Of a stretch of DNA of 64,000 bases, positions 4,301 through 63,394 are shown piece by piece. Below the pieces are notes generated by a model. That model was not told the DNA's origin, did not search any database, and saw only the letters and a list, made by a program, of their open reading frames with translations. Source of the stretch: a virus; IMG/VR virus record IMGVR_UViG_3300050821_016057, positions 1 to 64,000 of that record. One strand, 5' to 3'. Position numbers and translations under genes: made by a program. The first letter of the stretch is position 1. Every line of letters starts with the position of its first letter.

Positions 4301-4318
4301 CCCAAACCCGGGTTTGGG
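4301..4318. repeat. 18-bp palindrome CCCAAACCCGGGTTTGGG copy 1
   Basis: Exact; symmetry extends to 26 bp (4297-4322); 3 nt after the portal stop. Confidence 0.97.
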
Positions 4319-4324
4319 TCCCGG

Positions 4325-4333
4325 TGCTAGCTT
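4325..4333 (+). promoter_or_regulatory. Class I extended -10 (TGCTAGCTT), leaderless
   Basis: 6 nt before ATG 4340. Confidence 0.5.
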
Positions 4334-4339
4334 CTCAGG

Positions 4340-4717
4340 ATGCTGACCGATCTACCGAACGGGAAGGGGCGCGGTAAGTGGCAGAGGATCTTGCTGGACG
4401 AGTTCGGAGACCATCCCAGGTGGTCGGCCATCATTCGTTGTCCGGATTGTGACATCCACCTCCCGATCCCAAACCACACAATTGCCGCGGACGGACAGGT
4501 GAGACCCTCGGTCGGCCACCTGGTCACACAATGCACTTGGCACACGTCACCCAAGTTGCTCGGTTGGTCCCCAATCCCAACCGTGCCGGAACCGAGGCCG
4601 ACACTGTCTTGTACAAGGTGCCCGGCAACAACCCGACAACTTGGAGGATGGGGGATGGCCGGAGGGTTGGTCTGTCCTGACTGCATGAAGCGGCTGCTTG
4701 GAGGTACCGGTGGCTGA
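4340..4717 (+). CDS. Small Cys/His zinc-binding protein with atypical low GC (insert)
   Basis: CPDC...PSV...CTWH, CTRC, CPDC motifs; codon usage differs from neighbours. Confidence 0.6.
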   Translation: MLTDLPNGKGRGKWQRILLDEFGDHPRWSAIIRCPDCDIHLPIPNHTIAADGQVRPSVGHLVTQCTWHTSPKLLGWSPIPTVPEPRPTLSCTRCPATTRQLGGWGMAGGLVCPDCMKRLLGGTGG

Positions 4718-5753
4718 CATGCGGGCGGCCGCGCGGGCCAAGCGGGCGCTCGACCAGAGCCGGGCAGCCGCAGTCGAGCTGGTGCGCGGGATGGGGGCGG
4801 AGAAGACGCGCGCGCTGCTGGAGCGGTCGGCGGAGGCGTTGAGGGCGCGCTTGCAGGCGGTGGCGGGGTCGCTGGGGCCGGACACGTACACGGTCGTGCA
4901 GCTGCGGGCCGCGCTCGCCCAGGTCCAGCACGTGCTGGTCACGACCACGCTGCCGGCGCTCCGGGACGCGGTCGTGGACTCGGCCGAGGAGGCGGGGCGG
5001 GCGGGCGCCCAGCACACGGTCGACTACCTGGCGGCGGCCGACCGGGCGTTCCGCGGGGCCGGGGAGCAGCCGCTGCCGCTCCGGGTGGCGGGGATGCTCC
5101 ACGAGGGGGTGAGCGGGGCCCGGGCGTCGGTGCTGCGCCGGCTGGCCAGCGAGCCCGCGCCCAGGGGCAAGCACCGGGGACCCCGGAAGAAGGTCCGGGT
5201 GGGCATCCTGGCCCGGTACGGGATCGAGACCGTGGGGGCGTTCGAGGAGGAGCTGCGGGTCGGGCTGGTGGCCAAAAAGTCTTGGACCGAGATGCGCGAG
5301 TCGATCACCAAGAGATCGCCGTTTCTGCAGGGCAAGCCGTCCCACTGGGCGCACCGGATCGTCCGGACCGAGGTGATGTCGGCGCACGGGGCGGCCGCCC
5401 ACCACTCGATCCAGCAGGCCAACCGGGACCTGGGCGGGGGGATGCTGAAGATCCTGAGCGAGACGTTCGACGACCGGACGGCCGCGGATTCTTGGGATGA
5501 TCATGGACAATGTCGGAGACCCGACGAGGACTTCGAGAACTGGTACGGGCCGTTCCCGTACCCGGCGGGTCGCCCCAACGACCGAGCAATCATTGTCCCG
5601 CATCGGCAGAGATGGCCACTTCCCGATTACCTTCAGCCTAAAACTGACGAAGAAGTTGAAGAAGCTTGGCGCCGCGAAGGGCACAAGAAGGATATGCCTT
5701 CGCGCTCACTTATTTCGACTGTGCCCGGGTTCGGCCATGATGAGGGGTTGTGA
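4710..5753 (+). CDS. MuF-like minor head protein
   Basis: RIVRTEV...DDRTAADS...HGQ...PAGRPNDR motif set; GGAGG before GTG 4710; follows portal. Confidence 0.85.
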   Translation: MADMRAAARAKRALDQSRAAAVELVRGMGAEKTRALLERSAEALRARLQAVAGSLGPDTYTVVQLRAALAQVQHVLVTTTLPALRDAVVDSAEEAGRAGAQHTVDYLAAADRAFRGAGEQPLPLRVAGMLHEGVSGARASVLRRLASEPAPRGKHRGPRKKVRVGILARYGIETVGAFEEELRVGLVAKKSWTEMRESITKRSPFLQGKPSHWAHRIVRTEVMSAHGAAAHHSIQQANRDLGGGMLKILSETFDDRTAADSWDDHGQCRRPDEDFENWYGPFPYPAGRPNDRAIIVPHRQRWPLPDYLQPKTDEEVEEAWRREGHKKDMPSRSLISTVPGFGHDEGL

Positions 5754-5824
5754 TGGCTTCCGCCTCGCTCATTCCAATCCGGAGGCGATGGTAGAAACCT
5801 TCCTTCGCGCATACGGGCAAGTAG

Positions 5825-6019
5825 TTAGTTGCGCTTCACCGCGAGGGCCAGCGGGTGGGCCTGGTAGGCCTCCACCACCTTGATCAGCTGGGCGTTCGCG
5901 CTGTCTACCTTGGCGAAGTCGTGGGACTGCCTCCAGAGCTGGACCTGCCGGAGCACGTCCAGCTCGAGCACGCGGAGGGTGGCGACCAGGTCCTGGGGTG
6001 GCTTGGGTTTGACGGGCAT
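5825..6019 (-). CDS. Small hypothetical protein (antisense insert)
   Basis: 64 aa ORF with GCGGCATAAG 6 nt upstream on the minus strand. Confidence 0.6.
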   Translation of the reverse strand: MPVKPKPPQDLVATLRVLELDVLRQVQLWRQSHDFAKVDSANAQLIKVVEAYQAHPLALAVKRN

Positions 6020-6025
6020 GACCCC

Positions 6026-6035
6026 CTTATGCCGC
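6026..6035 (-). promoter_or_regulatory. Class II motif GCGGCATAAG, leaderless
   Basis: 6 nt before minus-strand ATG 6019. Confidence 0.65.
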
Positions 6036-6080
6036 CGCGGCGTTCTTGCGCGGCCCGGGACCGGCTGTTACCTGTTGAGC

Positions 6081-7817: not shown

Positions 7818-8678
7818 ATGCCCGATGTAGTCGACCCCAAAGCAACCCAGCCCGGCATCGTCGGGCCCGTCACCACCATCACGCCCGACGTGGTCGTCCC
7901 CCCGGCCACCCCGCCCGCGCCCCCGGCCCCGCCGGTCTCGGCCGCGCCCGTCCCCCCGGCCGCGCCCGCCTCGCCCCCCCACCCGGGCCCGGTCTCGATC
8001 GGGGACGACGGCGACATCCCGGACGACGCCGAGCTGCTCACCCTGTCGAAGAGCGCGCTCAACAAGCGCCTGGCCCGGGCGACCCGCGCCGAGCTGAAGG
8101 CGCGGTTCGGCACCGACAACCCCGACGAGATCAAGTCGAAGCTGGATCGGCTGGCCGAGTTCGAGACCAAGCAGGAGGAGCAGCGGCTGGCCAGCCTGTC
8201 CGAGCTGGAGCGCGAGCGGGAGGCCAAGGCGAAGGCCGAGGGGGAGCGGGACGAGTGGAAGAGGCAGCACGACGAGCTGAGGACGGCCAACCTGGTCCGG
8301 GGCGCGCACTCGCGCGTCAGCAGCATCTCGGGCAAGCACTTCAAGGACACGGCCCAGAAGTTCATCCAGTTCGAGTTCCAGGAGTACCTGCAGGGGCTCC
8401 CGGAGGCCGAGGTGGTGGCGATGACGGACGAGCAGATGGACAGTTGGTTCGCCGGGGAGGCCAAGACCCACCCGGAGCTGTCGCGGGGGTACACCCCGCC
8501 CGCCCCGCCCACGCCGGTCGCCCCGCTGACCAACGGCCCGCCGGCCCCCGAGGGCGCGCCCCCCCCGACGGGCGCGGGCGGCCAGCAGGCGGCCCCCAAC
8601 TTCGCGCCGTCGGCCGCCAACCCGATGAGCCGGCAGGAGGCTCGCAAGGAGGCGGCCAAGCTGGGCTACAACTACTAG
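7818..8678 (+). CDS. Capsid scaffolding protein
   Basis: AGGAGGAG RBS; Pro-rich N-terminus, KRLAR and coiled coil LSELER; immediately before major capsid. Confidence 0.8.
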   Translation: MPDVVDPKATQPGIVGPVTTITPDVVVPPATPPAPPAPPVSAAPVPPAAPASPPHPGPVSIGDDGDIPDDAELLTLSKSALNKRLARATRAELKARFGTDNPDEIKSKLDRLAEFETKQEEQRLASLSELEREREAKAKAEGERDEWKRQHDELRTANLVRGAHSRVSSISGKHFKDTAQKFIQFEFQEYLQGLPEAEVVAMTDEQMDSWFAGEAKTHPELSRGYTPPAPPTPVAPLTNGPPAPEGAPPPTGAGGQQAAPNFAPSAANPMSRQEARKEAAKLGYNY

Positions 8679-8680
8679 AC

Positions 8681-8698
8681 CCCAAACCCGGGTTTGGG
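8681..8698. repeat. 18-bp palindrome copy 2
   Basis: Exact; extends GAC..GTC; 2 nt after scaffold stop. Confidence 0.97.
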
Positions 8699-8703: not shown

Positions 8704-8741
8704 GACCCCCCGCGGCGCGCGCCCCGGGGGGTCTGTCTTTT
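8704..8741 (+). terminator. Probable Rho-independent terminator
   Basis: GACCCCCCG/CGGGGGGTC stem followed by TGTCTTTT. Confidence 0.55.
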
Positions 8742-8948: not shown

Positions 8949-10349
8949 ATGCCGGATATCATCCTGGGCGTACCGCCCGCGATCCTCGCCCTGAACCAGA
9001 AGGGCCTGATCGAGCGAGCTTTCCACGACGGTCTCTACCCCAACCTGGCGTTCCGGGCGGAGGCCATGCCCGAGGAGTGGCCCGCCAACCAGGGCACCCA
9101 GCAATTCCAGTCGCGCCCCGGGCTCCTGGCCCCGCGCGTCACCGCCATCCAGCCGGGCACCGACCCGGTCGGCCAGTCGGTCAACTACGAGCAGTGGGTG
9201 GCCCAGCTCCAGCAGTACGCGGACTCGACCGACACCCACATGCCGACCAGCGTGACCGCGTCGGCCAACCTGTTCCTCCGGAACATCAAGCAGCTCGGCC
9301 TGCAGGCCGGCCAGTCGGTCAACCGCATCGCCCGCAACGCGATGTTCGTCGCCTACTGCTCGGGCCAGACGGTCTCGCTCACCGCGATCCTCACCACGGA
9401 CACGACCGTCCGGGTGGCGAGCCTCAACGGGTTCCAGGACGTGGTCGTGCCCTCGGGCAACGTGGCCCCGCTCCCCGTCAGCCCGCAGTCGCCGCTGCCG
9501 ATCACGATCGGCACGGGCGCCGCGCAGGTCAGCGCGTCCGTCATCGGGTTCATCCCCGACGACCCCAACGACACCAACGGCCCGGGCACGCTCCAGCTGC
9601 TCGCCCAGGTCGGCTCCAGCGCGTTCACGAGCGCGCGCGTCACCGTCAAGTCGGCGTACGCGCCCCGCATCGTCCGCTCGGCCCCGGGCGACTCGGTCGA
9701 CGCGATCAGCGCGAGCGACTCGATCACGCTCCAGCAGTGCATCAACGCGACCGCGTTCCTGCGCCGCGCCAACGTGCAGCCGCACGACGACGGCTTCTAC
9801 CACGCGCACCTGTCGGCCCTGGGCAACGCGCAGTTCTTCGCGGACCCGGTGTTCCAGCGCCTCAACCAGTCCCTCCCCGAGCACGTCATCTACAAGGAGG
9901 GGTTCATCGGCACGATCGCCGGGATCATGTTCATCCTGAACAACGAGGCCCCCGAGCAGTACAACACGGGCAACCAGCTCGTGACCGCCAACAGCGGCAT
10001 CTACGGCGACGAGATCGGCGCCGAGGTGGTGAACGGGACGGGCGTGGCCATCGGCCGCGTGCTCATCACCGGGAAGGGCTCGGTCTACGAGCGCTACCTG
10101 GACGAGTCGGCGTTCGTGACCGAGGCGGGCCTGCTCGGCAAGATCGGCGAGTTCAACATCACCAACAACGGGATGCAGATCCTGACGGAGCGCATCCGCC
10201 TCATCATGCGCGCCCCGATGGACAAGCTGCAGCAGTCGGTCACGACCAGCTGGTCGGTCACCACGTCGTTCCCGACGCCCAGCGACATCACCGCGCCCAG
10301 CGGACCAGAAAGGTACAAACGGGCGGTAGTGCTTGAGTTCGCCACTTAA
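8949..10349 (+). CDS. Major capsid protein
   Basis: 466 aa after scaffold; extreme codon bias; LGLQAGQSVNRIARN and GFYHAHL...G.IG..AGI.F resemble HK97-fold capsid motifs. Confidence 0.85.
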   Translation: MPDIILGVPPAILALNQKGLIERAFHDGLYPNLAFRAEAMPEEWPANQGTQQFQSRPGLLAPRVTAIQPGTDPVGQSVNYEQWVAQLQQYADSTDTHMPTSVTASANLFLRNIKQLGLQAGQSVNRIARNAMFVAYCSGQTVSLTAILTTDTTVRVASLNGFQDVVVPSGNVAPLPVSPQSPLPITIGTGAAQVSASVIGFIPDDPNDTNGPGTLQLLAQVGSSAFTSARVTVKSAYAPRIVRSAPGDSVDAISASDSITLQQCINATAFLRRANVQPHDDGFYHAHLSALGNAQFFADPVFQRLNQSLPEHVIYKEGFIGTIAGIMFILNNEAPEQYNTGNQLVTANSGIYGDEIGAEVVNGTGVAIGRVLITGKGSVYERYLDESAFVTEAGLLGKIGEFNITNNGMQILTERIRLIMRAPMDKLQQSVTTSWSVTTSFPTPSDITAPSGPERYKRAVVLEFAT

Positions 10350-10390: not shown

Positions 10391-10408
10391 CCCAAACCCG
10401 GGTTTGGG
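10391..10408. repeat. 18-bp palindrome copy 3
   Basis: Exact; extends CT..AG. Confidence 0.97.
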
Positions 10409-13728: not shown

Positions 13729-13746
13729 CCCAAACCCGGGTTTGGG
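13729..13746. repeat. 18-bp palindrome copy 4
   Basis: Exact; 2 nt after stop. Confidence 0.97.
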
Positions 13747-20305: not shown

Positions 20306-20323
20306 CCCAAACCCGGGTTTGGG
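20306..20323. repeat. 18-bp palindrome copy 5
   Basis: Exact; extends CT..AG. Confidence 0.97.
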
Positions 20324-22177: not shown

Positions 22178-22183
22178 CCCCCC

Positions 22184-22193: not shown

Positions 22194-22197
22194 CCCA

Positions 22198-22215
22198 CCC
22201 AAACCCGGGTTTGGG
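22198..22215. repeat. 18-bp palindrome copy 6
   Basis: Exact; between divergent class II and class I promoter motifs. Confidence 0.97.
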
Positions 22216-26078: not shown

Positions 26079-26096
26079 CCCAAACCCGGGTTTGGG
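26079..26096. repeat. 18-bp palindrome copy 7
   Basis: Exact; 6 nt after stop. Confidence 0.97.
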
Positions 26097-32876: not shown

Positions 32877-32894
32877 CCCAAACCCGGGTTTGGG
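32877..32894. repeat. 18-bp palindrome copy 8
   Basis: Exact; between divergent genes. Confidence 0.97.
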
Positions 32895-33679: not shown

Positions 33680-33697
33680 CCCAAACCCGGGTTTGGG
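33680..33697. repeat. 18-bp palindrome copy 9
   Basis: Exact; 11 nt upstream of a class II motif. Confidence 0.97.
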
Positions 33698-35325: not shown

Positions 35326-35724
35326 ATGAGGAAGCGGAGCGAGGTAGGCGGGGCGGAAGAGCGCGCGAACCCCAAGTACGAGGCTGGGATGGACACCCAC
35401 CAGGAGGACGCCCGGGGCCCAAACCCGGGTTTGGGTCCCACCCTGGACCCGCCCGAGCCGGGGGCGGTGGTGTTCGGGGACCGGACGTTCCGGGCCGTGT
35501 GGGGGGAGGAGAAGATCACGCCGGTGCCGGGCAGCTACTCGACCGTGACGGTGGGGCCGTTCGAGAGCCTGTTCGTGGTGGCGGCGGGCGGGGACGCGGC
35601 GCGGGCGCTCGACCACGCCAACCGGGAGCTGGCCGCGTTCGCGGAGGTGGAGCGGGAGCGCAAGGTCCAGTCGTTCCTGAACAAGACGCGCCAGGTCACC
35701 GCCGGCGCGAAGGGGGACCGCTGA
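35326..35724 (+). CDS. Hypothetical protein starting MRKRSE
   Basis: GAGGAGG RBS; stop overlaps next start. Confidence 0.65.
   Translation: MRKRSEVGGAEERANPKYEAGMDTHQEDARGPNPGLGPTLDPPEPGAVVFGDRTFRAVWGEEKITPVPGSYSTVTVGPFESLFVVAAGGDAARALDHANRELAAFAEVERERKVQSFLNKTRQVTAGAKGDR
35418..35435. repeat. 18-bp palindrome copy 10 (inside CDS)
   Basis: Exact; read as PNPGLG. Confidence 0.97.
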
Positions 35725-41723: not shown

Positions 41724-41741
41724 CCCAAACCCGGGTTTGGG
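41724..41741. repeat. 18-bp palindrome copy 11
   Basis: Exact; upstream of early promoter. Confidence 0.97.
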
Positions 41742-43228: not shown

Positions 43229-43290
43229 CGAAGTTGCAGTGCGGGCGCTGAGGCGCCCGAGGTGAAGGACAACCGAGGACGGTGACCAGG

Positions 43291-43938
43291 ATGGCGAGAG
43301 AGATCGAAGGGCCGGCGTTCCGCTTGAGGGACGGTCGGAGCACGTACGGCGAGTTCGCCCGGGAGACCCGGGAGCGCTGGGTGGCGATGGCCCGGTGGTT
43401 GATGCGGCGGTGGCGGGTGCCGGGTTGGGTGGACGTCGAGGACGTCGTCCAGGAGCTGATGATCGGGGCGTGGCGGGGGTGCTTCGAGTACCAGGAGGGC
43501 CGGGGGACGAGGTCGCTGGGCGGGCACGTCGAGTACGTGGCCACCGACAAGGCGAAGAAGCGGATGCACAAGTGGCGGGGCGCGCTCCTGCACGGCAACC
43601 CGGACGCCGAGGACGGGCATATGGACGTCCCGTTCTGCGTGGTCGAGGACGGGGACGGTTGGGTGGACACGCTGTCGAACGTGCCGCCCGGGCAGGAGGA
43701 CGCGCTGATGCGCCGGCAGAGCGGGCGGGCGGTGCTCCGGCAGTGCCAGTCGATCGAGGAGCTGCTGGTCGTGCAGGCGCTGGCCGAAACCGAGAGCTTC
43801 ATCGGGTCGGCCGCCCTGATCTACGGGGACGAGGACTCGCGGCAGCTGCTCGAGCTTAGGAGCGAGGAGCACGCCGCGCAGGTGGTGGTGAGGACCGCGT
43901 ACGCGGTGGTGGACAGGATTCAACTCGAGGCAGCATGA
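43291..43938 (+). CDS. Sigma70 region 2-like (ECF-type) factor
   Basis: MARWLMRRW...DVEDVVQELMIGAWR...Y..GRG resembles region 2; region 4 not recognisable. Confidence 0.65.
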   Translation: MAREIEGPAFRLRDGRSTYGEFARETRERWVAMARWLMRRWRVPGWVDVEDVVQELMIGAWRGCFEYQEGRGTRSLGGHVEYVATDKAKKRMHKWRGALLHGNPDAEDGHMDVPFCVVEDGDGWVDTLSNVPPGQEDALMRRQSGRAVLRQCQSIEELLVVQALAETESFIGSAALIYGDEDSRQLLELRSEEHAAQVVVRTAYAVVDRIQLEAA

Positions 43939-43949
43939 GGGAGACGACC

Positions 43950-45109: not shown

Positions 45110-45127
45110 CCCAAACCCGGGTTTGGG
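45110..45127. repeat. 18-bp palindrome copy 12
   Basis: Exact; 2 nt after stop, 6 nt before class II motif. Confidence 0.97.
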
Positions 45128-45201: not shown

Positions 45202-48200
45202 ATGGCGAAGGACAGGGAGTACGTGAACGCGTTCGTGGACGGGCAGGACCTGGTCCGGCTGTTCCGGGAGCCGGGCGGTCAGGTGATGGCGGTCCGGAAG
45301 CCGGCCGAGTGGAGCGGGTTCATCCGCAGGGACGAGGTGGCGCCCGAGCTGGTCCGGGAGCTGAGGACGAGCGCGGTCATCCGGGGGATCCGGGAGGAGG
45401 GCGCGCACCTGCGGCTGACGTGGACGAGCCCGGAGGTGCGCCGGCAGTATTGCACCCACCCCGAGTCGCCGCTCCAGAAGGGCGGGGTGACCGTCTACGA
45501 GGGGGACGTGGACCCGGTGCGCCGGCACTTCACCGACACCGAATCGAGGATCGCCCGGCCGCGCCGCTGCTACCTGGATATCGAGACCGACAGCCGGGTG
45601 CCGTTCAGCCGGAAGGAGGAGATGCGCCTGCTCAGCTGGGCGGTGGTCGACCACGACACGGGCGAGCGGTGGAGCGGGGTGCTGGGCGAGTGGAGCGACC
45701 GGTCGGAGCGGGAGCTGCTCAAGGGGATGTGGGCCGCGCTGGGGCCGTTCGACCAGGTGTGCGGGTGGTACCTGGACGGGTTCGACGCGCCGGTCGTCTT
45801 CGCTCGGTCGGCGCTCCACAAGCTGCCGACGGACGCGCGGCGGTGGCTGTGGTTGGACCACCTGGAGGTGTTCCGGAAGATGAACCAGCACTCGGCCGAG
45901 TCTGGTGATGAGAAGCGGAGCATGCGCCTGGAGGACATCGGCCAGTCGGTGACCAAGCGGGGCAAGCTCAAGACCCCCGACTGGGTGGTGGCCCGGTTCG
46001 GGGACCGGAGCATGGGCGAGCTGTCCTACCAGCTCTGGGAGGCGGGGGGCGAGTTCCGGGACCTGCTGGTCCGGTACAACGAGGAGGACACGGACCTGCT
46101 CCGGCTGATCGAGCTGGAGACCGGGTACCTGGACCTGTTCGGGACGCTCTGCGAGGCGTGCCGGCTGTTCGCCGACACCCGGAGCCTCAACCCGACCCAG
46201 CAGATGGACGGGTTCATGCTGCGCCTCGGGTCGCGGCGGGACTACCGGTTCCCGACCAAGCTGTTCAATAACGCGGGCGTGAAGTTCAAGGGCGCGTTCG
46301 TCATGCAGCCCACCGTGCTCGACAAGGGCTGGAGGGACGAGCACGGGATGCGGGACGGGATCCTTCGCAACGTGCACGTGTGCGACTACTCGGCCATGTA
46401 CCCGTCGATCATCCTGACTTGGAACATGAGCCCGGACACCAAGGTGTGGAGCGGGCCGGCCAACGGGCCGATCCCGGAGGGGATGTGCCGGGCGCCGCTC
46501 ACCGGGATCTGCTTCCGGACCGGGGTGGAGGGGATCCTGCCCACCGCGATCAAGGAGATGCTCCGACTGCGGAAGTACTGGAACGACTTGAAGGCGAGCC
46601 TGCCGCCCGGGACGCCCGAGTGGCATGACGCCGACCGGAGGAGCACCGCCTACAAGGTGGCGGTGAACGCGTTCTACGGGGTGGTGGGGAGCCCGTTCAG
46701 CCGGTTCTTCGACAAGCAGATCGCCGAGTCGGTCACGCAGTGCGGGGTGTGGCTGCTGAAGCGGACCTTGCACGAGGCCGAGCAGCGCGGGTTCCAGGCC
46801 GTGTACGGGGACACCGACTCGGGTTTCGTGGCCGGGGTGGACCGGCTGGTGTTCGCCGAGTTCGTCCGGTGGTGCAACGACGAGCTGTACCCGGGGATGC
46901 TGGCCGGCCAGCAGTGCACCGAGAACCACGTCAAGCTCGCGTACGAGAAGGAGTTCGACCGGATCGTGTTCACGTCGGCCAAGAGATATTGTGGTAATTT
47001 CCGACATTATAAGTGGTCGACCACCTGCACGTGCGACGTGACCAAGAAGGGCAAGACCCAGCCGGGCGCGCTCGACGTCAAGACGATGACCTGCAAGGAC
47101 TGCGGGACCCGGCACGACGTCCTGCCCCCGATCCGGAGCGAGCCGGAGATCAAGGGGATCGAGTACAAGCGGGGGGACGTGCTCAAGATGGCGGCCGACC
47201 TGCAGGCGGTGGCGATCGACATGCTGGTGGGGGGGCTGCAACGGTCGGAGTCGGGCGTGACCGAGCGGATGGAGGACTACCACGGGGTGCTGAGCCGGAT
47301 CCGGCAGCGCGTGCTCGAGCACCCGCTCGAGCTGGGGGACGTCAAGCTGTCCAAGGGGCTCAGCAAGCCGCTCAAGGAGTACGTGGCCAAGAAGAAGCAG
47401 GACGGGGAGGACGCGGGCCAGCCCCCGCACGTGGTGGTGGCCCACTTGCTGAAGCAGCGCGGGCAGGACGTGCAGCCCGGGACGCGCATCGACTACTTCG
47501 TGCAGGACGGGGCGGCGAGCCCGATGCGGGTGTTGCCGGCCGAGGACTGGAAGGGGGAGTGCGACCGGTACTACCTGTGGGAGTCGCTCGTGTACCCGCC
47601 GACCCAGCGGCTGCTGGAGGCGGCGTTCCCGGACCGGGGGTGGGACGAGTGGGCGAAGGTCCGCCCCAAGAAGCCGACGAGGGCCGAGCTGAAGGCGGCC
47701 GCCCAGCCCGACCTATTCGCGCCCAAACCCAAGGCCTCGGCGACCCCCGGGAGGGCTCTGGCGACCCGGAGGCGCCCTACCCCCCAGGTGGAGCTGCCGG
47801 AGGCTCCTAGGGTCATCCAGGCGCCAGCAGCGGGCCCGCCGGCTGCCGCCGATCGCCCCGTACTGGCCGAGGTGCTGCCGGCTGAGTCGTTGCTGCCTAC
47901 TGAGCGGGAGATGTTCCAGGCGCTGAGGGACGCGCCGATCCCGACCTTTCGGGAGCTGTATCACCTACCGGAGCCGTACGTGCTCCGGGTGGACGAGGCG
48001 TCGCTGGGGGACAGCCCGGTCGCGTACGAGAGCATGCTGCTGTCGCTGCGGGCGGTCTTGCTCCGCCACCCTGGCGAGCATCCTTTGGACCTGGTTCTGC
48101 GCCTTCGGTCGGGCGCGGAGGCGGTGCTGTCGCTGCCCTACCGGGTTCGGGTGTCGCCCGTGCTGGAAGACGAGCTGTCTGGGTACCGGGCGCGGCATAA

Positions 48201-48264
48201 GGGTACTCATGAAGAAGCGGAGCGAGGTGGGAAAGGCGCTGGAGGGGGCTCAGAAGCTGGTTGA
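45202..48264 (+). CDS. polB: Family B DNA polymerase with C-terminal extension
   Basis: Exo I DIETD; DYSAMYPSI; KVAVNAFYG; YGDTDS; KRY; KGIE. Confidence 0.95.
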   Translation: MAKDREYVNAFVDGQDLVRLFREPGGQVMAVRKPAEWSGFIRRDEVAPELVRELRTSAVIRGIREEGAHLRLTWTSPEVRRQYCTHPESPLQKGGVTVYEGDVDPVRRHFTDTESRIARPRRCYLDIETDSRVPFSRKEEMRLLSWAVVDHDTGERWSGVLGEWSDRSERELLKGMWAALGPFDQVCGWYLDGFDAPVVFARSALHKLPTDARRWLWLDHLEVFRKMNQHSAESGDEKRSMRLEDIGQSVTKRGKLKTPDWVVARFGDRSMGELSYQLWEAGGEFRDLLVRYNEEDTDLLRLIELETGYLDLFGTLCEACRLFADTRSLNPTQQMDGFMLRLGSRRDYRFPTKLFNNAGVKFKGAFVMQPTVLDKGWRDEHGMRDGILRNVHVCDYSAMYPSIILTWNMSPDTKVWSGPANGPIPEGMCRAPLTGICFRTGVEGILPTAIKEMLRLRKYWNDLKASLPPGTPEWHDADRRSTAYKVAVNAFYGVVGSPFSRFFDKQIAESVTQCGVWLLKRTLHEAEQRGFQAVYGDTDSGFVAGVDRLVFAEFVRWCNDELYPGMLAGQQCTENHVKLAYEKEFDRIVFTSAKRYCGNFRHYKWSTTCTCDVTKKGKTQPGALDVKTMTCKDCGTRHDVLPPIRSEPEIKGIEYKRGDVLKMAADLQAVAIDMLVGGLQRSESGVTERMEDYHGVLSRIRQRVLEHPLELGDVKLSKGLSKPLKEYVAKKKQDGEDAGQPPHVVVAHLLKQRGQDVQPGTRIDYFVQDGAASPMRVLPAEDWKGECDRYYLWESLVYPPTQRLLEAAFPDRGWDEWAKVRPKKPTRAELKAAAQPDLFAPKPKASATPGRALATRRRPTPQVELPEAPRVIQAPAAGPPAAADRPVLAEVLPAESLLPTEREMFQALRDAPIPTFRELYHLPEPYVLRVDEASLGDSPVAYESMLLSLRAVLLRHPGEHPLDLVLRLRSGAEAVLSLPYRVRVSPVLEDELSGYRARHKGTHEEAERGGKGAGGGSEAG
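48192..48201 (+). promoter_or_regulatory. Class II motif GCGGCATAAG, leaderless
   Basis: 7 nt before ATG 48209, inside polB 3' end. Confidence 0.65.
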
Positions 48265-48819: not shown

Positions 48820-48837
48820 CCCAAACCCGGGTTTGGG
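48820..48837. repeat. 18-bp palindrome copy 13
   Basis: Exact; intergenic. Confidence 0.97.
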
Positions 48838-52270: not shown

Positions 52271-52768
52271 GTGGCGAGGAAGAAGAAGGACTTGGGCCCG
52301 ATAAAGATCCGGCCGTTCGGGGACTTGGTTATCGCAGCTGAAGTGCCGTTCCCAAACCCGGGTTTGGGGGCGAGAGTTCCCGCGTGGGGAGCGTTCGAGC
52401 TGGTGGGGTTTGACACCCCGCTCGCGCTGACGATCGGGAAGGACAGCGTGATGTGGGTCGATTCCGAGTCGTGGCTGTCGACCCCCCCGAGTCTCGGTGG
52501 CGCGTACGTGAGGATCGACCCGCCCGCATGGGCGACCGACGAGCAGGTGGAGCGGGCCCGGTTCCTGGTCGCGCAGGCCGGGGCGTGCGCGGTGAGGGTG
52601 CTGCCCCGCCCCAGGGCGGCCCCGATGGTCCGGGAGGCCCGGGAGCCCGCCCGGGCCCGGGAGACCCTCAGGGAGGCCGTCCTGGCGGTCAGCGGGGGGG
52701 TGGCGTCGAGCGACCGGGCCGCGCTGGACCGGGTGGTCGAGGGAGTGCTGGGAAAGGTGGGTCTTTAA
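52271..52768 (+). CDS. Putative detached SbcD C-terminal region
   Basis: GAYVRI...AGA.AV.V... pattern between sbcD and sbcC. Confidence 0.5.
   Translation: MARKKKDLGPIKIRPFGDLVIAAEVPFPNPGLGARVPAWGAFELVGFDTPLALTIGKDSVMWVDSESWLSTPPSLGGAYVRIDPPAWATDEQVERARFLVAQAGACAVRVLPRPRAAPMVREAREPARARETLREAVLAVSGGVASSDRAALDRVVEGVLGKVGL
52351..52368. repeat. 18-bp palindrome copy 14 (inside ORF)
   Basis: Exact; read as PNPGLG. Confidence 0.97.
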
Positions 52769-54716: not shown

Positions 54717-54940
54717 CCACCCACGACTGGTACGGGATCGCCGTCTACTGCGTGGTGTTCGTCGTGCACTTCTACTCGTGGGCGGACGGGGCCAAGAAGG
54801 GGTACCGGCTGGCGCTCAAGCACGTGGGCGACGAGCACGCGCGCGACCTGCGGGGCATGTTCCGGTGGGAGGTGCCCCGGACCCCCTGGGAGATCGTGGA
54901 GAAGTTGATGGCCGAAGACCTCGTGGACCGTGGGCGATGA
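54713..54940 (+). CDS. Small membrane protein
   Basis: ATGA coupling; N-terminal hydrophobic helix. Confidence 0.55.
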   Translation: MTTHDWYGIAVYCVVFVVHFYSWADGAKKGYRLALKHVGDEHARDLRGMFRWEVPRTPWEIVEKLMAEDLVDRGR

Positions 54941-55547
54941 GTTCGACCCGGATTGCCCCGAGGACCGGGTGGACGGCGGCGCCTGGTACGGGTGGTGGGC
55001 GGTGAGGGGACCCAAACCCGGGTTTGGGGTCGGGCCGGCCGTGCTGGGCCTGGACCTGTCGCTGCGCGGGGCGGGGGCGGTGGTGCTGCCGGGCTGCTGG
55101 GACCCGTCCCGCCCCAACGCCGGGGTGGTGGCGCACCGGTTCACCGAGGAGGGTCGGCTGGAGGGGAGGGAGCGGCAGGCGGCGATCGTCCGGGGGGTGT
55201 GGCGGCTGGCCGTCCAGCAGGCGGTCAAGTGGGCGTTCGTGGAGGAGCACTCGTTCAGCAAGGGGCTGATGAAGCACGCGTACGCGCGGGCCGAGCTGGT
55301 GGGGGCGGTCAAGAACGACCTCTGGTCGCAGCTGGGGATCGAGGTCGTGCCCGTGGTGGCGAGCAGCGCGCGCAAGCTCCTGTTCGGCCCGCAGCGGCGG
55401 ATGACTTCCCGTGAGTGGAAACAGTTCATCCAGGCCGGCTTCGGGGACATGGGGCTCGACCTGCCCGACGAGGACACCCGGGACGCGATGGTGGTGGCGA
55501 ACGCGGGCCGGCACGTCCGCGGACTGGTCTGCCTGTCCGCGGGGTGA
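54930..55547 (+). CDS. RuvC-like Holliday junction resolvase (true start may be downstream)
   Basis: LGLDLSL..AG, FVEE, AELVGAVK, SARK, DEDTRDA. Confidence 0.85.
   Translation: MGDEFDPDCPEDRVDGGAWYGWWAVRGPKPGFGVGPAVLGLDLSLRGAGAVVLPGCWDPSRPNAGVVAHRFTEEGRLEGRERQAAIVRGVWRLAVQQAVKWAFVEEHSFSKGLMKHAYARAELVGAVKNDLWSQLGIEVVPVVASSARKLLFGPQRRMTSREWKQFIQAGFGDMGLDLPDEDTRDAMVVANAGRHVRGLVCLSAG
55011..55028. repeat. 18-bp palindrome copy 15
   Basis: Exact; read as PKPGFG in the ORF. Confidence 0.97.
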
Positions 55548-56190: not shown

Positions 56191-57624
56191 GTGAGGAAGA
56201 CCAAGGCGGCGGTGCCCACCGGGCACGAGCGGGTGGAGAAGCCGTTCATCCGAAAGTTCAACTCGGCGAACAGGAAGGCCCGCCCGGGCAAGCCGTCGCC
56301 CACCATGATCAGCAACGCGCCGGACACCGCCCCTCTCGTCCGAGAGGGGCCCATCGCGGGCGACGGCGCGTACGCGGGGCTGCTGTCGCGCGAGCTGCCC
56401 CGGGAGGCGCCCGCGGCCCGCGGGATGACGCTGGCCAGCTTCTTCTGCTGCGGGGGCGGGATCGACCTGGGTTTCCGCTCGGCCGGCTTCCGGACCGCGT
56501 TCGCCAACGACATCCACCAGGCGGCGGCCGACACGTTCGCCGACAACCTGGGCCACCGGCCGCTCCTGCGGACAATCCGCGAGGTCGGCCCGGCCGACTA
56601 CCCGGGGGGGCCGGTGGACGTGGTGACGGGCGGGTTCCCGTGCGTGACGTTCAGCATGGCGGGCCGGCGGGCCGGCGTGACCGACGACGAGAACGGCAAG
56701 CTGTACCTGGAGCTCTGCCGGGTCATCCGCGAGCTGAACCCCAGGTACTTCGTGGCCGAGAACGTGAAGGGGATGCTGAGCGCGAACGGCGGGCAGGCGG
56801 TCAAGCTGGTGCTGGCCGCGTTCCTGCGACTCGGATACCGGACCCAATACGAGATGGTCAACATGGCCGAGCACGGGGTGCCGCAGACGCGCGAGAGGGT
56901 GATCTTCGTCGGGGTGAGGGTCGACCAGTGGCGGGGCTCGTTCCTGTTCCCGCGGAGGACGCACCGGCTGCGGGACGACAGGCGCGCCAAGATGTGGCTG
57001 CCGGTGGCGAGGACGCTGGCGGAGGCGGTGGGCGACCTGGGCCCGCCCGGCGAGCGGCTAAGGGGGATGATGCACGCGGACGCGGCCGCCAAGGTGGGCA
57101 AAGTGGGGATCACCAACGGGTTCCAGAACAGCCGGCCTAGGAGCCCGGTGGACCCGTCTCACTCGCAGACCAGCTCGGGGGCCAACGTGCTGATCGTGGA
57201 CGCCAACCACGCGCGCAACGACGAGCCGGTCAGCGCCACCTACGCGATGAGCAAGCGGGTGGCCAGGCGTGGGCGACCGTCACCCACGCTCGTGAGCGAG
57301 GCCGCCAACGTGCAGCCCTTCATCAGGGACGGCCGCGACGTCGTCGCGGCGAGGAACCCCGACTTCCACAACCCGCTGCGGGCGGCCAGCGGTCCGTCGC
57401 CGACCATGACCTCGGGCGGGCAGACCGAGGTGGTGGAGCGGTCGGGCGGGATGCGCAGGATGACGGCCCGCGAGTGCGCGCGCGTGCAGAGTTTCCCGGA
57501 CTGGTACGAGTTCGCGGGCAGCCAGGCCGACCAGTACAGGATCATCGGGAACGCCGTGCCCCCGCTCTACGCGAAGGCCCTGGCGCTGGCGCTCATCGAG
57601 TACGACGGAAGGGAAAAGGCGTGA
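56191..57624 (+). CDS. DNA cytosine-5 methyltransferase
   Basis: FCCGGG, GFPC, ENV, QTRER, RECARVQSFP, IGNAVPP. Confidence 0.95.
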   Translation: MRKTKAAVPTGHERVEKPFIRKFNSANRKARPGKPSPTMISNAPDTAPLVREGPIAGDGAYAGLLSRELPREAPAARGMTLASFFCCGGGIDLGFRSAGFRTAFANDIHQAAADTFADNLGHRPLLRTIREVGPADYPGGPVDVVTGGFPCVTFSMAGRRAGVTDDENGKLYLELCRVIRELNPRYFVAENVKGMLSANGGQAVKLVLAAFLRLGYRTQYEMVNMAEHGVPQTRERVIFVGVRVDQWRGSFLFPRRTHRLRDDRRAKMWLPVARTLAEAVGDLGPPGERLRGMMHADAAAKVGKVGITNGFQNSRPRSPVDPSHSQTSSGANVLIVDANHARNDEPVSATYAMSKRVARRGRPSPTLVSEAANVQPFIRDGRDVVAARNPDFHNPLRAASGPSPTMTSGGQTEVVERSGGMRRMTARECARVQSFPDWYEFAGSQADQYRIIGNAVPPLYAKALALALIEYDGREKA

Positions 57625-58412
57625 TGGCTACCAAGAAGGTGAGGCAGAAGGTGTCGGCGTCGAAGCCGGAGGGGCTCAAGGTGCCGGTCCCCCAGCAGGT
57701 CAAGCTGGCCGATCTGCAGTTCGCCCCCTACAACCCACGCAGCATCTCCCGGGAGGTGATGGGGGCGCTCAAGGCCAGCCTGCGGAAGCACGGGATGGTC
57801 CTGACGCTGGTGGTGCAGAAGCTGAGCGGGGCCCACGGGCCGATGGTGCTGATCGGCGGGCACCAGCGGGTGCGGGCCATGCGGGAGCTCTGCGCGGCCG
57901 AGGGGTGGCCGGAGCCGGCCGAGGTGTCGGCGGTCGTGCTGGACGTGGGGGACGCGGAGGCCAAGCAGCTCAACGTGTCGCTCAACAACATCGAGGGGGA
58001 GTTCGACCCCTACAAGCTGGGCGAGATGTTCCGCGACATCCGCCCCGCCATGACCATGGACGACGTGCTGGCCACCGGGTTCGCCCCGGTGGAGATCGAC
58101 GAGATGATCAACCTGCTGGCGAGCCCGGACGACGCGGCGCGCCTGCTCGAGGAGAACATCGGCGACCTGGGCGGGTTCGGTTCCAGCATCACGCTGAGCA
58201 TCGAGTTCGCGACCGTGGAGTCCAGGGACGAGGCCAAGTCGATTCTGAAGGCGGCCGCCCAGCACTCGGGCAAGAAGCCCGGGGACCTGATGCTCCGGGC
58301 GGTGAAGGCGTCGGACGTGCTCGGCAAGCTGGGCGGCCCGCGGCATAAGGGTGGGGATGGCAAGTCGAAGGCGAAGGGCGCCCCTAGGGCAGCAGCACCT
58401 CAGCGAGCGTAG
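57624..58412 (+). CDS. ParB N-terminal (CTPase-fold) domain protein with possible C-terminal RHH
   Basis: L..APYNPR...LKASL..HG...LIGGHQR. Confidence 0.85.
   Translation: MATKKVRQKVSASKPEGLKVPVPQQVKLADLQFAPYNPRSISREVMGALKASLRKHGMVLTLVVQKLSGAHGPMVLIGGHQRVRAMRELCAAEGWPEPAEVSAVVLDVGDAEAKQLNVSLNNIEGEFDPYKLGEMFRDIRPAMTMDDVLATGFAPVEIDEMINLLASPDDAARLLEENIGDLGGFGSSITLSIEFATVESRDEAKSILKAAAQHSGKKPGDLMLRAVKASDVLGKLGGPRHKGGDGKSKAKGAPRAAAPQRA
58340..58349 (+). promoter_or_regulatory. Class II motif GCGGCATAAG, leaderless
   Basis: 7 nt before ATG 58357. Confidence 0.65.
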
Positions 58413-60437: not shown

Positions 60438-60682
60438 GCGGTTGGCAGGAGTACGTGCCCCGGTACGCCGAGCACGTGAAGGGCCGGTACACGCGGGTGA
60501 CGGTCGAGGACGGCAGGCGCCAACCCCAGCTCGTCGAGGCCCGGTGCGAGCGGTGCGGGGCCTGGTACCGGAACGAGTGCCGGCAGGGCAGGCCGCGCCA
60601 GCACGTGGCGCTGTTCGCCCGGCAGCACCTGCACCCGGCCGGGCTCCAGGACAAGCGGGCCAACTTGCCGGTGCCCAGGTGA
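60422..60682 (+). CDS. Small zinc-finger protein
   Basis: AGGAGG RBS; CERC...C...H.H. Confidence 0.6.
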   Translation: MAEELSGWQEYVPRYAEHVKGRYTRVTVEDGRRQPQLVEARCERCGAWYRNECRQGRPRQHVALFARQHLHPAGLQDKRANLPVPR

Positions 60683-61032
60683 GCGGCGAGGCGAAGAGGG
60701 TGCCGGTGGACTTCCGGTACGACGCCCTGAACCCGGCGTTCCTGAAGTGGATGGCGCGGATCGGGTCCTACGCGGCCGACAAGTACGGCTCGTGGGAGCA
60801 GTACCGGGAGACCCGGCTGGTGGGCGAGAAGTCGCCCGTCAACCACATGTACGAGCACCTCCGGCAGTACCAGGTGGGCGAGCCGCACGACCACTTCGAC
60901 GGGGACGTGCGCTGGCACCTGGTGGCCGTCGCGTACAACGCGATGATGGAGTTCTACTACTGCACCCGGTGGGGCCACCCCGAGCACCCGCTGGAGGTCC
61001 CAAACCCGGGTTTGGGAGACGGGGCGGCATAA
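60679..61032 (+). CDS. dATP/dGTP diphosphohydrolase-like (DUF5664) protein
   Basis: RYDAL...MARI..YAADKYG...H...HL...GE..D...HL.AVAYNAMM. Confidence 0.7.
   Translation: MSGEAKRVPVDFRYDALNPAFLKWMARIGSYAADKYGSWEQYRETRLVGEKSPVNHMYEHLRQYQVGEPHDHFDGDVRWHLVAVAYNAMMEFYYCTRWGHPEHPLEVPNPGLGDGAA
60999..61016. repeat. 18-bp palindrome copy 16 (inside CDS 3' end)
   Basis: Exact; 7 nt before class II motif. Confidence 0.97.
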
Positions 61033-61033
61033 G
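61024..61033 (+). promoter_or_regulatory. Class II motif GCGGCATAAG
   Basis: Its TAA doubles as a stop codon. Confidence 0.6.
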
Positions 61034-61521: not shown

Positions 61522-61967
61522 GCCGCCGGGACGACTGGACGCAGGCGCTCTGCGTGGCGCTCGTGAAGGACCGCGGTGTGACGGCCGCGGACGCGCTGCG
61601 CGTGCTCGAGCTGGCGGCCGCGCTGCCCGACGACAGCTTCCCCGAGATGACCGCGGCCGGGGTGGTGGCGTTCGTCCAGCACGGGCTGCGGGAGGGCGCG
61701 GCGCCCGGGTGGGTGGCGGAGGTCCGGGAGGGGGAGGCGCGGAACATCCGGGTGACGTCCACCGGGACGGCGTCGTCGAACTGGACGCTGGCGGCCCGCC
61801 AGCTCTACGACGAGCTGCCCGAGGTGTTCCACCCGCTGTTCGTCGGCAATTCGATGGTCCGGTTGACCAGGGACGAGTGGGACGAGCTGGTGGCCTGGGT
61901 GCGCGGGGTGCCGGGCTGGCAGCAGGGCGATGCGCCCTTCATCGCGATCGCGGAGCGCAAGCCGTGA
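61518..61967 (+). CDS. Hypothetical protein
   Basis: GTGA coupling. Confidence 0.55.
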   Translation: MSRRDDWTQALCVALVKDRGVTAADALRVLELAAALPDDSFPEMTAAGVVAFVQHGLREGAAPGWVAEVREGEARNIRVTSTGTASSNWTLAARQLYDELPEVFHPLFVGNSMVRLTRDEWDELVAWVRGVPGWQQGDAPFIAIAERKP

Positions 61968-62635
61968 GGGACAGCTCGCTGGGCAAGCTGGTCAGGCTCT
62001 CGGAGAAGGAGGACCGGGACGCCGAGGACCTGGCGTTCGACCCGACCGTCAAGCGGCTCTGCGACCGGGACGGGTGCCAGAACGACGGCGAGCTGCGCCC
62101 CGTGCTGCTGCTCCAGCCGGGCCGCGACTACACGGGCAAGCCGATGAGGGTGCCGCTCGGCATCGTGGTGTGCCCCACCCACGCGGAGCGGTCGCCCGAC
62201 CGCTACATGAGCGACGAGATGTGGCAGGACATCGTCGGCGGGTTCAAGGCGCGGGACCTCGCCCCCCCGCACCGGTCGAGCACCCGGCTGGACTTCGACC
62301 CGCACCCCGGGTCGGTGGTGGCGGCGTCGGAGGGGGAGCGCTCGCCCGAGCGACTGGCCATGGAGGCGACGGTCGACTACGTGGCCGGGGACGCGACGGT
62401 GTCGAACGCGCCGGCCGGGCTGACCCTGGAGGAGCGGAGGGTCGAGGTGCGCAGGCTGGGGCTCCAGCAGGCGGTGGAGAAGATGCGGCGGGTGATGCCC
62501 CGGGGCGGGTTCACGGTCGTGGACACGACGACCGACCAGGAGATCGACCAGGGGAAGTTCAAGTGCCGGGTCCAGTCGGAGACGGTGGGCGGGCCGGGCG
62601 TGATCGTCCCGGTGGCCCGCGGCAAGACCGACTGA
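61964..62635 (+). CDS. Hypothetical protein with CxxxxC...CxxH zinc site
   Basis: GTGA coupling; CDRDGC...CPTH. Confidence 0.6.
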   Translation: MRDSSLGKLVRLSEKEDRDAEDLAFDPTVKRLCDRDGCQNDGELRPVLLLQPGRDYTGKPMRVPLGIVVCPTHAERSPDRYMSDEMWQDIVGGFKARDLAPPHRSSTRLDFDPHPGSVVAASEGERSPERLAMEATVDYVAGDATVSNAPAGLTLEERRVEVRRLGLQQAVEKMRRVMPRGGFTVVDTTTDQEIDQGKFKCRVQSETVGGPGVIVPVARGKTD

Positions 62636-62659
62636 CGGGCCTGTGGTAGCTTCCCGGGC

Positions 62660-63055
62660 ATGGCGCGAGTCTGCCCTGCTAGCCGAACCGTCCCGGGCGA
62701 GTGCTGGTGCGCCAGGCACCGGAGCGGGGACGCGGTCGAGGACCGCCACCGGCAGCAGGTCGGGGAGGCCCGTTGGGAGTTCAAGGGCGGGGAGGCGCTC
62801 CACGTGTTCGTATCGTCCAAGCAGGGCGGGGAGGTCAGCCTGTGCAACCTCCGGCAGGCCGCGCCCGAGGAGGCGGCCCTGCGCCGCCGGCAGGGGCACC
62901 CGGACCCGACCGACCGCTGCCTGCAGTGCCGCCGGACCCTGACCAGCCGGGTGCCCAACGCCCGGATGCGCCGGTACCTGGCGGAGGCGGCCAGCCGCCC
63001 CCAGGAGCGGTCGGGGGTGAGGATGAGGACGATCGGGCGGTCGGGGGTCGGCTAG
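62660..63055 (+). CDS. Hypothetical Cys-containing protein
   Basis: TGGTAGCTT 7 nt before ATG. Confidence 0.55.
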   Translation: MARVCPASRTVPGECWCARHRSGDAVEDRHRQQVGEARWEFKGGEALHVFVSSKQGGEVSLCNLRQAAPEEAALRRRQGHPDPTDRCLQCRRTLTSRVPNARMRRYLAEAASRPQERSGVRMRTIGRSGVG

Positions 63056-63077
63056 CCCTTCCTGGGGTGACGTCGCG

Positions 63078-63087
63078 GCGGCATAAG
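63078..63087 (+). promoter_or_regulatory. Class II motif GCGGCATAAG, leaderless
   Basis: 7 nt before ATG 63095. Confidence 0.65.
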
Positions 63088-63094
63088 GGGTCCC

Positions 63095-63373
63095 ATGGGA
63101 AGGCGAGAGAGGAGGCAGGCGACCGCGCTGGCCCGGAAGCACCCGGACCGGTTCGAGGCCCGGCAGTTCCGGTCGACGTGCTGGGCGTGCGGGCGGTTCA
63201 GGACCTTGTTCGCGGAGGGCGGGCAGATCCGGCTCAGGAACGACTGCGCGTGCCTGCCCGAGGGGGGGCGGGACGGGACCTGCCCGACGTGCGACGTCGT
63301 GGGGGGCCACGCGCACCTCTGCCCCAAGGTGGCCAAACCCAAGGGAGACGCAGGTGGACCTTCGGGAGGGTGA
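63095..63373 (+). CDS. Small zinc-finger protein
   Basis: CWAC, CAC, CPTC...H...CP. Confidence 0.6.
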   Translation: MGRRERRQATALARKHPDRFEARQFRSTCWACGRFRTLFAEGGQIRLRNDCACLPEGGRDGTCPTCDVVGGHAHLCPKVAKPKGDAGGPSGG

Positions 63374-63376
63374 GGA

Positions 63377-63394
63377 CCCAAACCCGGGTTTGGG
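63377..63394. repeat. 18-bp palindrome copy 17
   Basis: Exact; extends GGA..TCC; 3 nt after stop. Confidence 0.97.

Follow-up and report, generated by a model that had tools for sequence, protein, structure and literature searches.

Lineage-specific palindromes at gene boundaries in a clade of uncultured phages: candidate sites for a phage-encoded DNA-binding protein

Genome-wide identical dyad repeats have already been reported in phages, for example in the Cluster O mycobacteriophages, and were left without an explanation. The Cluster O repeats (5'-TGTTCGGNNNCCGAACA) are 17 bp long, occur in 34 copies and have invariant 7-bp arms (TGTTCGG/CCGAACA) with a variable 3-bp spacer; their discoverers suggested binding by a dimeric protein and offered no explanation of function (PMC4351075). 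Stoperators of the Cluster A mycobacteriophages L5 and Bxb1 are 20–30 near-identical sites lying mostly away from promoters, with a lineage-specific consensus that co-diverges with the phage binding protein, and binding to them blocks transcription (PMC6550527, PMC9283540). KorB of plasmid RK2 is a global transcriptional repressor that acts from O_B sites at varied distances from promoters (PMC11790492). The present analysis concerns the first 64 kb (hereafter the window) of the viral record IMGVR_UViG_3300050821_016057, the 99,861-bp genome (G000; CheckV completeness 100%; G+C 70%) of an uncultured ~100-kb soil phage, in which a perfect 18-bp palindrome, CCCAAACCCGGGTTTGGG, recurs without variation. 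Palindromes of this kind, with a different sequence in each lineage, occur throughout a clade of related phages, and this clade-wide occurrence is new here. It is proposed, at about an even chance, that they are high-affinity duplex-DNA sites for a phage-encoded protein of two-fold symmetry (a homodimer) that acts on transcription, the best candidate being the product of the gene at 43935-45107 (g50).

An invariant palindrome and its counterparts in relatives

The original prediction, made from the letters of the window, had placed 17 exact copies of CCCAAACCCGGGTTTGGG there, and all 17 coordinates (listed below) are correct. The window holds no match with one to three mismatches, where 0.02 matches are expected from dinucleotide-preserving shuffles, and the gaps between copies run from 803 to 6798 bp. 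The whole record contains 26 exact copies and none with one or two mismatches. Outside the palindrome, its central hexamer CCCGGG is neither avoided nor enriched (176 observed, 184 expected).

The array was also predicted to be a genome-wide cis system, which presupposes a sequence-specific reader, and this is supported. A repetitive extragenic palindromic (REP) element of the host is ruled out: the host-genome search yielded four isolated occurrences of the motif, one each, among 185,579 species genomes (596 Gb). An exact-motif scan of IMG/VR found it in no further contig. An assembly artefact is likewise ruled out: the phage is present in two soil-metagenome DNA runs, one from each of two studies, and the contigs assembled independently from them span the copies at 32877, 35418, 41724 and 48820 with no differences. 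Among the public runs listed for the phage there is no RNA run. The final 10 bases of the record (GCCCAACAGC) equal its first 10 (window 1-12; genome 99850-99861) and an open reading frame (ORF) is open at its 5' end (1..1092), so a circular closure or a permutation in assembly is possible, despite the IMG/VR class of linear.

No cultured phage matched 10 kb of the window in a Megablast search, and the nearest capsid match was Streptomyces phage Kromp at 32% identity. A PolB profile search of metagenomes and IMG/VR retrieved ~95 loci, and nine complete relatives of 86–100 kb were assembled, with PolB 39–50% identical. There are closer relatives (g50 52–58% identical), of which a scan of viral contigs found none. 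In each of the ten complete genomes, the word repeated most often is a perfect palindrome specific to the lineage. Those of the relatives are 12–24 bp long, with 7–29 copies per genome and a centre that is always CG, and the central four bases take the form N-CG-N' (CCGG, TCGA, GCGC or ACGT across the ten genomes):

G000: CCCAAACCCGGGTTTGGG, 26 copies
G001: GAACCCGGGTTC, 20 copies
G002: TGGAACTCGAGTTCCA, 24 copies
G003: CGAAAAGCGCTTTTCG, 13 copies
G004: CCGCAACACGTGTTGCGG, 29 copies
G005: CCGACATCGATGTCGG, 19 copies
G006: CCGCACGGCGCCGTGCGG, 26 copies
G007: GAACATCGATGTTC, 7 copies
G008: CGGATGATCGATCATCCG, 17 copies
G010: AGACAGATCGATCTGTCT, 8 copies

In G001 all 20 of 20 copies keep a 12-bp core unchanged, and the arms outside it lose conservation by degrees, the behaviour that a binding-energy profile would predict. 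One lineage (L014, L049 and L069) is asymmetric at a single position, with all nine sites in one orientation. Two further loci, L027 and L032, have an identical 18-bp palindrome, CCGCAAACCGGTTTGCGG, in 12 and 19 copies within 22 kb; their DNA is alignable over only ~3 kb of the 22 kb, at 73% identity.

The copies are spaced more evenly than chance allows. The coefficient of variation of the gaps is 0.34–0.61 in all ten genomes, against ~0.9 expected under random placement, either uniform or restricted to gene ends, and P<=0.02 in nine of the ten. Regular spacing of this sort is what would be required of a genome-organising system, in which a ParB/Noc-like protein would load or be anchored at the palindromes and would coat, compact, position or protect the replicating phage DNA, gene boundaries being merely where an 18-bp insert is tolerated. 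The ParB/KorB-like fold of g50 (described below), a second encoded protein with a ParB_N domain (g62) and the presence of copies in the structural and replication modules alike agree with such a role. The parS-like idea of the original prediction thus gains indirect support from the spacing and from a core protein with a ParB/KorB-type DNA-binding fold. However, g50 is without the CTPase/clamp domain that ParB-type spreading requires, and g62 is undetected in three of ten palindrome-bearing relatives; an organisational role is judged improbable.

Certain gene junctions bear a site repeatedly across the clade. The one where the structural module ends and the helicase follows has a site in all seven syntenic relatives; at many others a site is restricted to particular lineages. 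Such turnover at gene-module borders, with only some junctions shared, would also be produced by recombination-boundary or self-propagating repeats without a dedicated reader, which at cassette borders would promote the shuffling of modules via RecA/UvsX and SbcCD and would be homogenised by gene conversion. The promoter/stem-loop cassettes of T4-type phages are an analogue. RecA/UvsX-like and SbcCD-like genes belong to the core of the clade, and the base change of the L049 lineage is fixed in nine of nine sites in one orientation, for which copying is easier to envisage than nine parallel mutations. Recombination between repeats and repeat-mediated indels are documented for Cluster O (PMC4351075). 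Against this, of 34 breakpoints internal to the homology of related genomes not one falls within 40 nt of a palindrome, a comparison of low power, and neither the perfection of the palindrome in every lineage nor the even spacing is explained. Repeats of this type are very unlikely to account for the array.

Gene ends and promoter-like elements

A gene call based on G+C at third codon positions (GC3) gave ~140 genes, which are almost without exception on the + strand and take up ~90% of the genome. Within the remaining ~10% lie 18 or 19 of the 26 copies, and 10 focal copies begin 1–3 nt past a stop codon. The ten genomes together have 189 copies, of which 138 are intergenic; the modal distance past the stop codon is 0–6 nt. 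The positions in the window are as follows; the palindromes themselves have no strand.

4301..4318, copy 1: 3 nt past a stop codon, with a TAGCTT -10-like box downstream and ATG at 4340
8681..8698, copy 2: 2 nt past the TAG stop of the gene 7818-8678
8704..8741, + strand: terminator-like GC hairpin (8704-8733) and T-run (8734-8741) directly after copy 2, as read from its flanks
10391..10408, copy 3: 41 nt past the major head gene (8949-10349)
13729..13746, copy 4: 2 nt past a stop codon, with a TAGGCT box ~30 nt downstream
20306..20323, copy 5: 26 nt upstream of the gene 20350-21600
22198..22215, copy 6: midpoint of divergent leaderless starts, ~29 bp from each
26079..26096, copy 7: 6 nt past a stop codon, with TAGGCT at 26115-26120 and a leaderless ATG at 26127
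32877..32894, copy 8: divergent promoter region
33680..33697, copy 9: GCGGCATAAG box (33709-33718) 11 nt downstream and the leaderless ATG of the helicase at 33726
35418..35435, copy 10: residues 31-37 (PNPGLG) of the predicted ORF 35326-35724
41724..41741, copy 11: 20 nt upstream of the sigma70-type promoter motif 41762-41776
45110..45127, copy 12: 2 nt past the g50 stop, with a GCGGCATAAG box (45134-45143) 6 nt downstream, ahead of PolB (45202-48264)
48820..48837, copy 13: 14 nt past a stop codon and 15 nt ahead of the ATG at 48853
52351..52368, copy 14: intergenic or within the N-terminal edge of an ORF, according to which start (52271 or 52403) is taken
55011..55028, copy 15: residues 28-33 (PKPGFG) of the predicted ORF 54930-55547
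60999..61016, copy 16: last 10 codons of the ORF 60679-61032, with a GCGGCATAAG box (61024-61033) 7 nt downstream
63377..63394, copy 17: GCGGCATAAT box (63404-63413) 9 nt downstream and a weakly predicted minus-strand ORF to the left

The predicted placement after stop codons and before promoter-like boxes thus holds. Four copies of the window had also been described as lying inside ORFs; they do fall within predicted ORFs, and only at their edges (residues 27-37 for 35418, 52351 and 55011, the last 10 codons for 60999). In the whole genome there are seven intragenic copies, all at ORF edges (residues 27-37 or the last 4–10 codons) with a single mid-ORF exception, in an ORF without homology support. 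No homologue alignment spans any of them. The reading frames used are just the two in which the palindrome encodes Pro/Gly linkers (PNPGLG and PKPGFG), as if these copies were tolerated rather than required, which is also what an organisational array would show.

Three classes of promoter-like element are found downstream of copies. The first, a GCGG[C/T]ATAA box, occurs 18 times on the + strand, usually 5–7 nt ahead of a leaderless ATG, and in 7 of the 18 cases a palindrome ends 3–11 nt upstream. These boxes look like -10-only promoters because the phage sigma-like protein (43282-43938) has only region 2 detectable. The second is a TAGGCT-type -10 box, 6–7 nt ahead of a leaderless ATG. The third comprises three sigma70-type promoters, each with an A-rich UP-like element, CTTGCA, an 18-nt spacer, a CATAAC-like -10, a leader hairpin, a Shine-Dalgarno sequence and ATG; at all three a palindrome lies 5–20 nt upstream of the UP-like element. 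They are probably early promoters served by the host RNA polymerase, and the one at 41762-41776 heads the operon of the sigma-like protein and g50.

Two copies sit between divergent promoters. Copy 6 has on its left a GGCGGCATAAGG box (~22183-22194, minus strand) and ATG 22177, and on its right TAGGCT (22223-22228) and ATG 22236. Copy 8 lies between a leftward sigma70-type promoter (motif 32857-32871; minus-strand gene 32040-32795) and a rightward leaderless start at 32934. This symmetric divergent placement, the three sigma70-type promoters and the 7 of 18 GCGG[C/T]ATAA boxes point to transcription and tell against genome organisation as the purpose of the array.

On the transcriptional reading, a homodimeric phage protein would bind the palindromes on double-stranded DNA, at sites distributed regularly along the whole genome, on the borders of genes and operons and beside promoters. 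Where a site abuts the -35 region or UP element of a promoter, the bound protein would serve as an operator-bound regulator; alternatively, it may form a boundary or roadblock between transcription units. In each phage lineage the site sequence would have changed at all copies together. For the binding protein the best candidate is g50, which is encoded with the phage sigma factor. A more specific and rather unlikely version sees the sites as clade-wide punctuation of lytic phages of ~90–100 kb, in which a g50 homodimer would insulate transcription units and switch promoter classes during infection. Here g50, with a zinc ribbon and a ParB/KorB-type domain and no CTPase, would be co-expressed with a region-2-only sigma factor, and the specificities of site and protein would evolve together within each lineage, the whole being the equivalent, in lytic phages, of KorB or stoperator networks.

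Several further features of the promoters and gene ends were recorded. The GCGG[C/T]ATAAG form of the box is confined to the non-structural part of the genome (window 33709-63413 and on to 96055), with minus-strand copies at 6027 and 22185; it is common to G004 and G006, and the other relatives are without it. The sigma70-type promoters (ATAAAAAGACTTGCA, 18 nt, CATAAC-like -10) are near-identical and lie at 41762-41830, at 32796-32871 (minus strand) and at genome position 84104-84180, and two of the three have in common a leader hairpin, GGCGC(T/C)GAGGCGCC, followed by a GGGAGGA Shine-Dalgarno sequence and ATG. In G000, G004, G005 and G006, the stop codon is TAG or TAA much more frequently in genes directly before a palindrome than in the rest (in G000, TAG in 7 of 11, against 15% elsewhere). 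The ~580 bp of 21601-22177, to the left of copy 6, are without a normal coding signal (best-frame GC3 0.75–0.79, against ~0.95 in genes) and include a 197-codon open minus-strand frame that starts at a perfect promoter-box-plus-ATG arrangement; this may represent a gene of recent acquisition or a transcript that is not translated.

Duplex DNA or RNA, and a candidate reader

Both DNA-level and RNA-level roles had been named in the original prediction, with no choice between them. An RNA-level element would be a transcribed copy folded into a short hairpin, acting between cistrons to attenuate or terminate transcription, to stabilise 3' ends or to direct processing, its copies kept identical by a phage-encoded sequence-specific RNA-binding protein or nuclease. 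T7 RNase III sites and CRISPR repeats with Cas6 are analogues. Transcribed, CCCAAACCCGGGTTTGGG would form a 7-bp stem with a CCGG loop (-8.1 kcal/mol), and with nearly all genes on one strand nearly all copies are transcribed in sense.

Several observations favour duplex DNA. The base pairs beside the central CG have changed symmetrically between lineages, so that the centre is self-complementary in every lineage, although in a hairpin these bases would be an unpaired tetraloop. Some invariant cores would fold only very weakly or not at all: the 12-mer core of G001 gives only -0.9 kcal/mol, and the palindromes of G002, G003 and G007 give ~-6. The outer-arm variants of G001 make A.C mismatches, and not G.U pairs, on the transcribed strand. 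In the pooled genomes, sites occupy 7 of 35 divergent junctions (20%), 133 of 1203 tandem junctions (11%) and 1 of 35 convergent junctions (3%), which is the reverse of a terminator pattern. As predicted, there is no U-tail: no T-run follows any focal copy and a consensus terminator scan flags none; the stable GC hairpin with an immediate U-tract that marks an intrinsic terminator is seen only at a few G006 copies. The separate canonical terminator after the copy at 8681 suggests that the palindrome itself is not the terminator there. Rfam 15 gave no match at gathering score in the window.

The flanks are less decisive than had been thought. The original prediction reported symmetry extended by flanking bases at 9 of 17 copies, up to 26 bp. 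These counts are right, and they barely exceed cross-copy controls: in the focal genome total extension is 21 against 14.2 +/- 4.7 (p=0.10), and p=0.04 for the number of copies with at least one extra flank pair. Covariation of the flanks is accordingly not significant there, and in most copies pairing is no greater than in the controls.

Other findings weigh against the duplex-DNA reading and in favour of RNA. The tight coupling to stop codons (1–3 nt in 10 focal copies, 0–6 nt over the ten genomes) fits an RNA 3'-end or intercistronic element too, and in G007 the TGA stop forms the first bases of the palindrome. Clear copy-specific compensatory stem extensions of 7–12 bp, some with T-runs, occur in a minority of the relatives' copies, mainly in G006 and also in G001, G005 and G008. 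Pooled stem extension is 369 against 325 +/- 12, a value reached by 1 of 5000 permutations, and the compensatory extensions in this minority of copies indicate real selection for hairpins. In G004 many copies lie 1–5 nt ahead of a Shine-Dalgarno sequence. The asymmetric L049 motif was considered as a discriminator between RNA and DNA and dropped; its odd base affects no more than the loop-closing pair, a change that a hairpin withstands (-6.8 kcal/mol). On balance the evidence leans to recognition of duplex DNA near promoters, and the RNA-level element is regarded as doubtful.

The proteins that bear on a possible reader are:

43282..43938, + strand: g49, sigma-70 region-2-like protein; region 4 not detected; its order with g50 is conserved in relatives
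43935-45107, + strand: g50, core protein, found in nine of nine relatives and at 52 loci, with the sigma-like gene on one side and PolB on the other in every case
56191-57624: C5 cytosine DNA methyltransferase (Pfam E 1e-62), translationally coupled to g62
57621..58412, + strand: g62, ParB_N-domain protein, adjoining the C5 DNA methyltransferase

The g50 protein evolves fast (24–35% identity) and consists of a CxxC...CPxC zinc ribbon, a disordered linker, a helical domain (aa 148-280; predicted local distance difference test, pLDDT, 80–91) and a C-terminal beta domain. The predicted helical domain matches the ParB-parS structure 6s6h (Z 9.6, root-mean-square deviation 3.6, 114 residues aligned), Spo0J (1vz0, Z 9.0) and KorB-operator (1r71, Z 7.1); Foldseek was led by the same three entries, with weak E-values, and the Atlas neighbours include DUF3102 and plasmid-partition clusters. 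A homodimer of g50 was predicted with a score of 0.77, against 0.00 for the best control, with contacts agreeing in at least 79% and a pLDDT of 74; a score of 0.77 was reached by 20 of 30 known homodimers and by 1 of 23 single chains. Copies of the palindrome also flank the g50 operon, at 41724 upstream of its promoter and at 45110 just past the g50 stop. As a side observation, the linker that joins the zinc ribbon to the DNA-binding domain is extremely variable and of low complexity across orthologues, with a long Glu/Ser-rich acidic run in G004 (L117:4080-5342) and Pro/Ala/Lys-rich runs in G008.

The case for g50 has to be set against a number of results. A homologue search returned unnamed proteins only, Pfam and PHROGs did not recognize it, and a profile search against PDB sequences matched the zinc ribbon alone. 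The N-terminal CTPase domain of ParB is absent (no ParB_N match), the N-terminus being the zinc ribbon. The Z of 7–10 for the helical domain falls within the range that the tool flags as a possibly common arrangement. Palindrome distance tracks distance in the g50 DNA-binding domain no better than PolB distance (r 0.26 and 0.26), the partial correlation with the former being r=0.14 (partial Mantel, p=0.07). The loci L027 and L032 have different g50 recognition helices with the same palindrome, L061 and L027 have nearly the same helix with different palindromes, and no code from recognition helix to half-site is visible across the g50 loci. The predicted fold and dimer thus make g50 a tentative candidate for the palindrome reader, a lead and not a finding.

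Other candidates were rejected. As a universal binder g62 fails, having been detected in seven of the ten relatives searched. The XRE-type helix-turn-helix protein g79 (68165-68416) has no homologue in any relative, and a GntR match (E 8e-5) from a bulk Pfam scan was not relocated by a genome search. That the central CCCGGG could be methylation-sensitive was also part of the original prediction. The C5 methyltransferase has one weak homologue (28% identity, in G006) among the nine relatives and was discarded as part of a clade-wide system. Searches of the phage found no tyrosine or serine integrase and no REP-associated tyrosine transposase (RAYT; Y1_Tnp).

Weighing all of this, we infer with modest confidence that the palindromes are read at the level of DNA, mostly through an effect on transcription, for which the chance stands near even, and to a small extent through genome organisation; a role in RNA comes well behind as a class, and recombination boundaries last. 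The trait is conserved in a large clade of uncultured environmental phages, and its wholesale motif replacement and regular spacing make it a comparative system. At least ten natural site variants, a candidate protein and defined promoter contexts (two symmetric divergent and three sigma70-type) supply experimental handles. If a cognate pair of protein and site were confirmed, the pairs of the different lineages would show concerted change of a DNA-binding specificity and of dozens of dispersed sites, and would constitute a set of orthogonal regulator-operator pairs.

Comparison with known systems

On plasmid RK2 there are 12 O_B sites, and Noc recognises ATTTCCCGGGAAAT. The O_B sites of KorB, parS of ParB and the Noc-binding sites resemble the palindromes described here in being short, CG-centred, perfect palindromes that are dispersed. 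They are bound by dimers (PDB 1r71, 6s6h, 6y93), whose DNA-binding fold is resembled by the predicted fold of g50. In type the palindromes of the phages fit the palindromic site of 13–16 bp to which a dimer with the ParB-type domain binds, and the predicted g50 homodimer would be a candidate for that part. In contrast to ParB, KorB and Noc, g50 has a zinc ribbon in place of the N-terminal CTPase domain, and a sliding clamp is not expected of it because that domain is absent. Those systems also belong to plasmids or chromosomes, whereas the present genome is that of a lytic-looking phage.

Terminators and REP elements are likewise GC-rich inverted repeats right after stop codons, and a few of the relatives' copies form the tips of terminator-like hairpins with T-runs. 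The focal copies differ from them in lacking a U-tract and in being identical in sequence and not only in structure. REP elements and bacterial interspersed mosaic elements (BIMEs) differ further, since the motif is no repeat in any of the species genomes searched and the phage has no RAYT.

The nearest published phenomenon is that of Cluster O. In both cases the repeats have invariant inverted arms, occur in many copies per genome (>30 in Cluster O), are spread genome-wide with many copies intergenic and some in ORFs, and are absent from hosts. The Cluster O repeats have a 3-bp spacer, whereas those described here are perfect palindromes without one, and the sequences are unrelated; the resemblance is thus one of kind and not of homology. 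Intergenic sites number 14 of 34 in Cluster O, compared with about 73% here. A single motif serves all five Cluster O phages, whereas a different one is found in each lineage of the present clade. Even spacing and a candidate binder are given here and were not reported for Cluster O.

The mechanistically nearest system is that of the stoperators, to which the 26 identical dispersed copies in 99.9 kb bear a likeness. Stoperators, however, are asymmetric, are bound by a monomeric immunity repressor, are oriented with transcription and belong to temperate phages. The focal phage has palindromic sites, no detected integrase, no identified repressor and only a candidate binder. The original prediction had held that operators normally tolerate degeneracy and cluster at one gene class; this is contradicted by stoperators (PMC6550527), by Cluster O (PMC4351075) and by the O_B sites of KorB (PMC11790492). 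From the Cluster O repeats, the stoperators and the sites of KorB, ParB and Noc alike, the present array differs in its spacer-less perfect palindromes, in the wholesale replacement of the motif between lineages of a broad clade, in its regular spacing and in belonging to a genome of lytic type.

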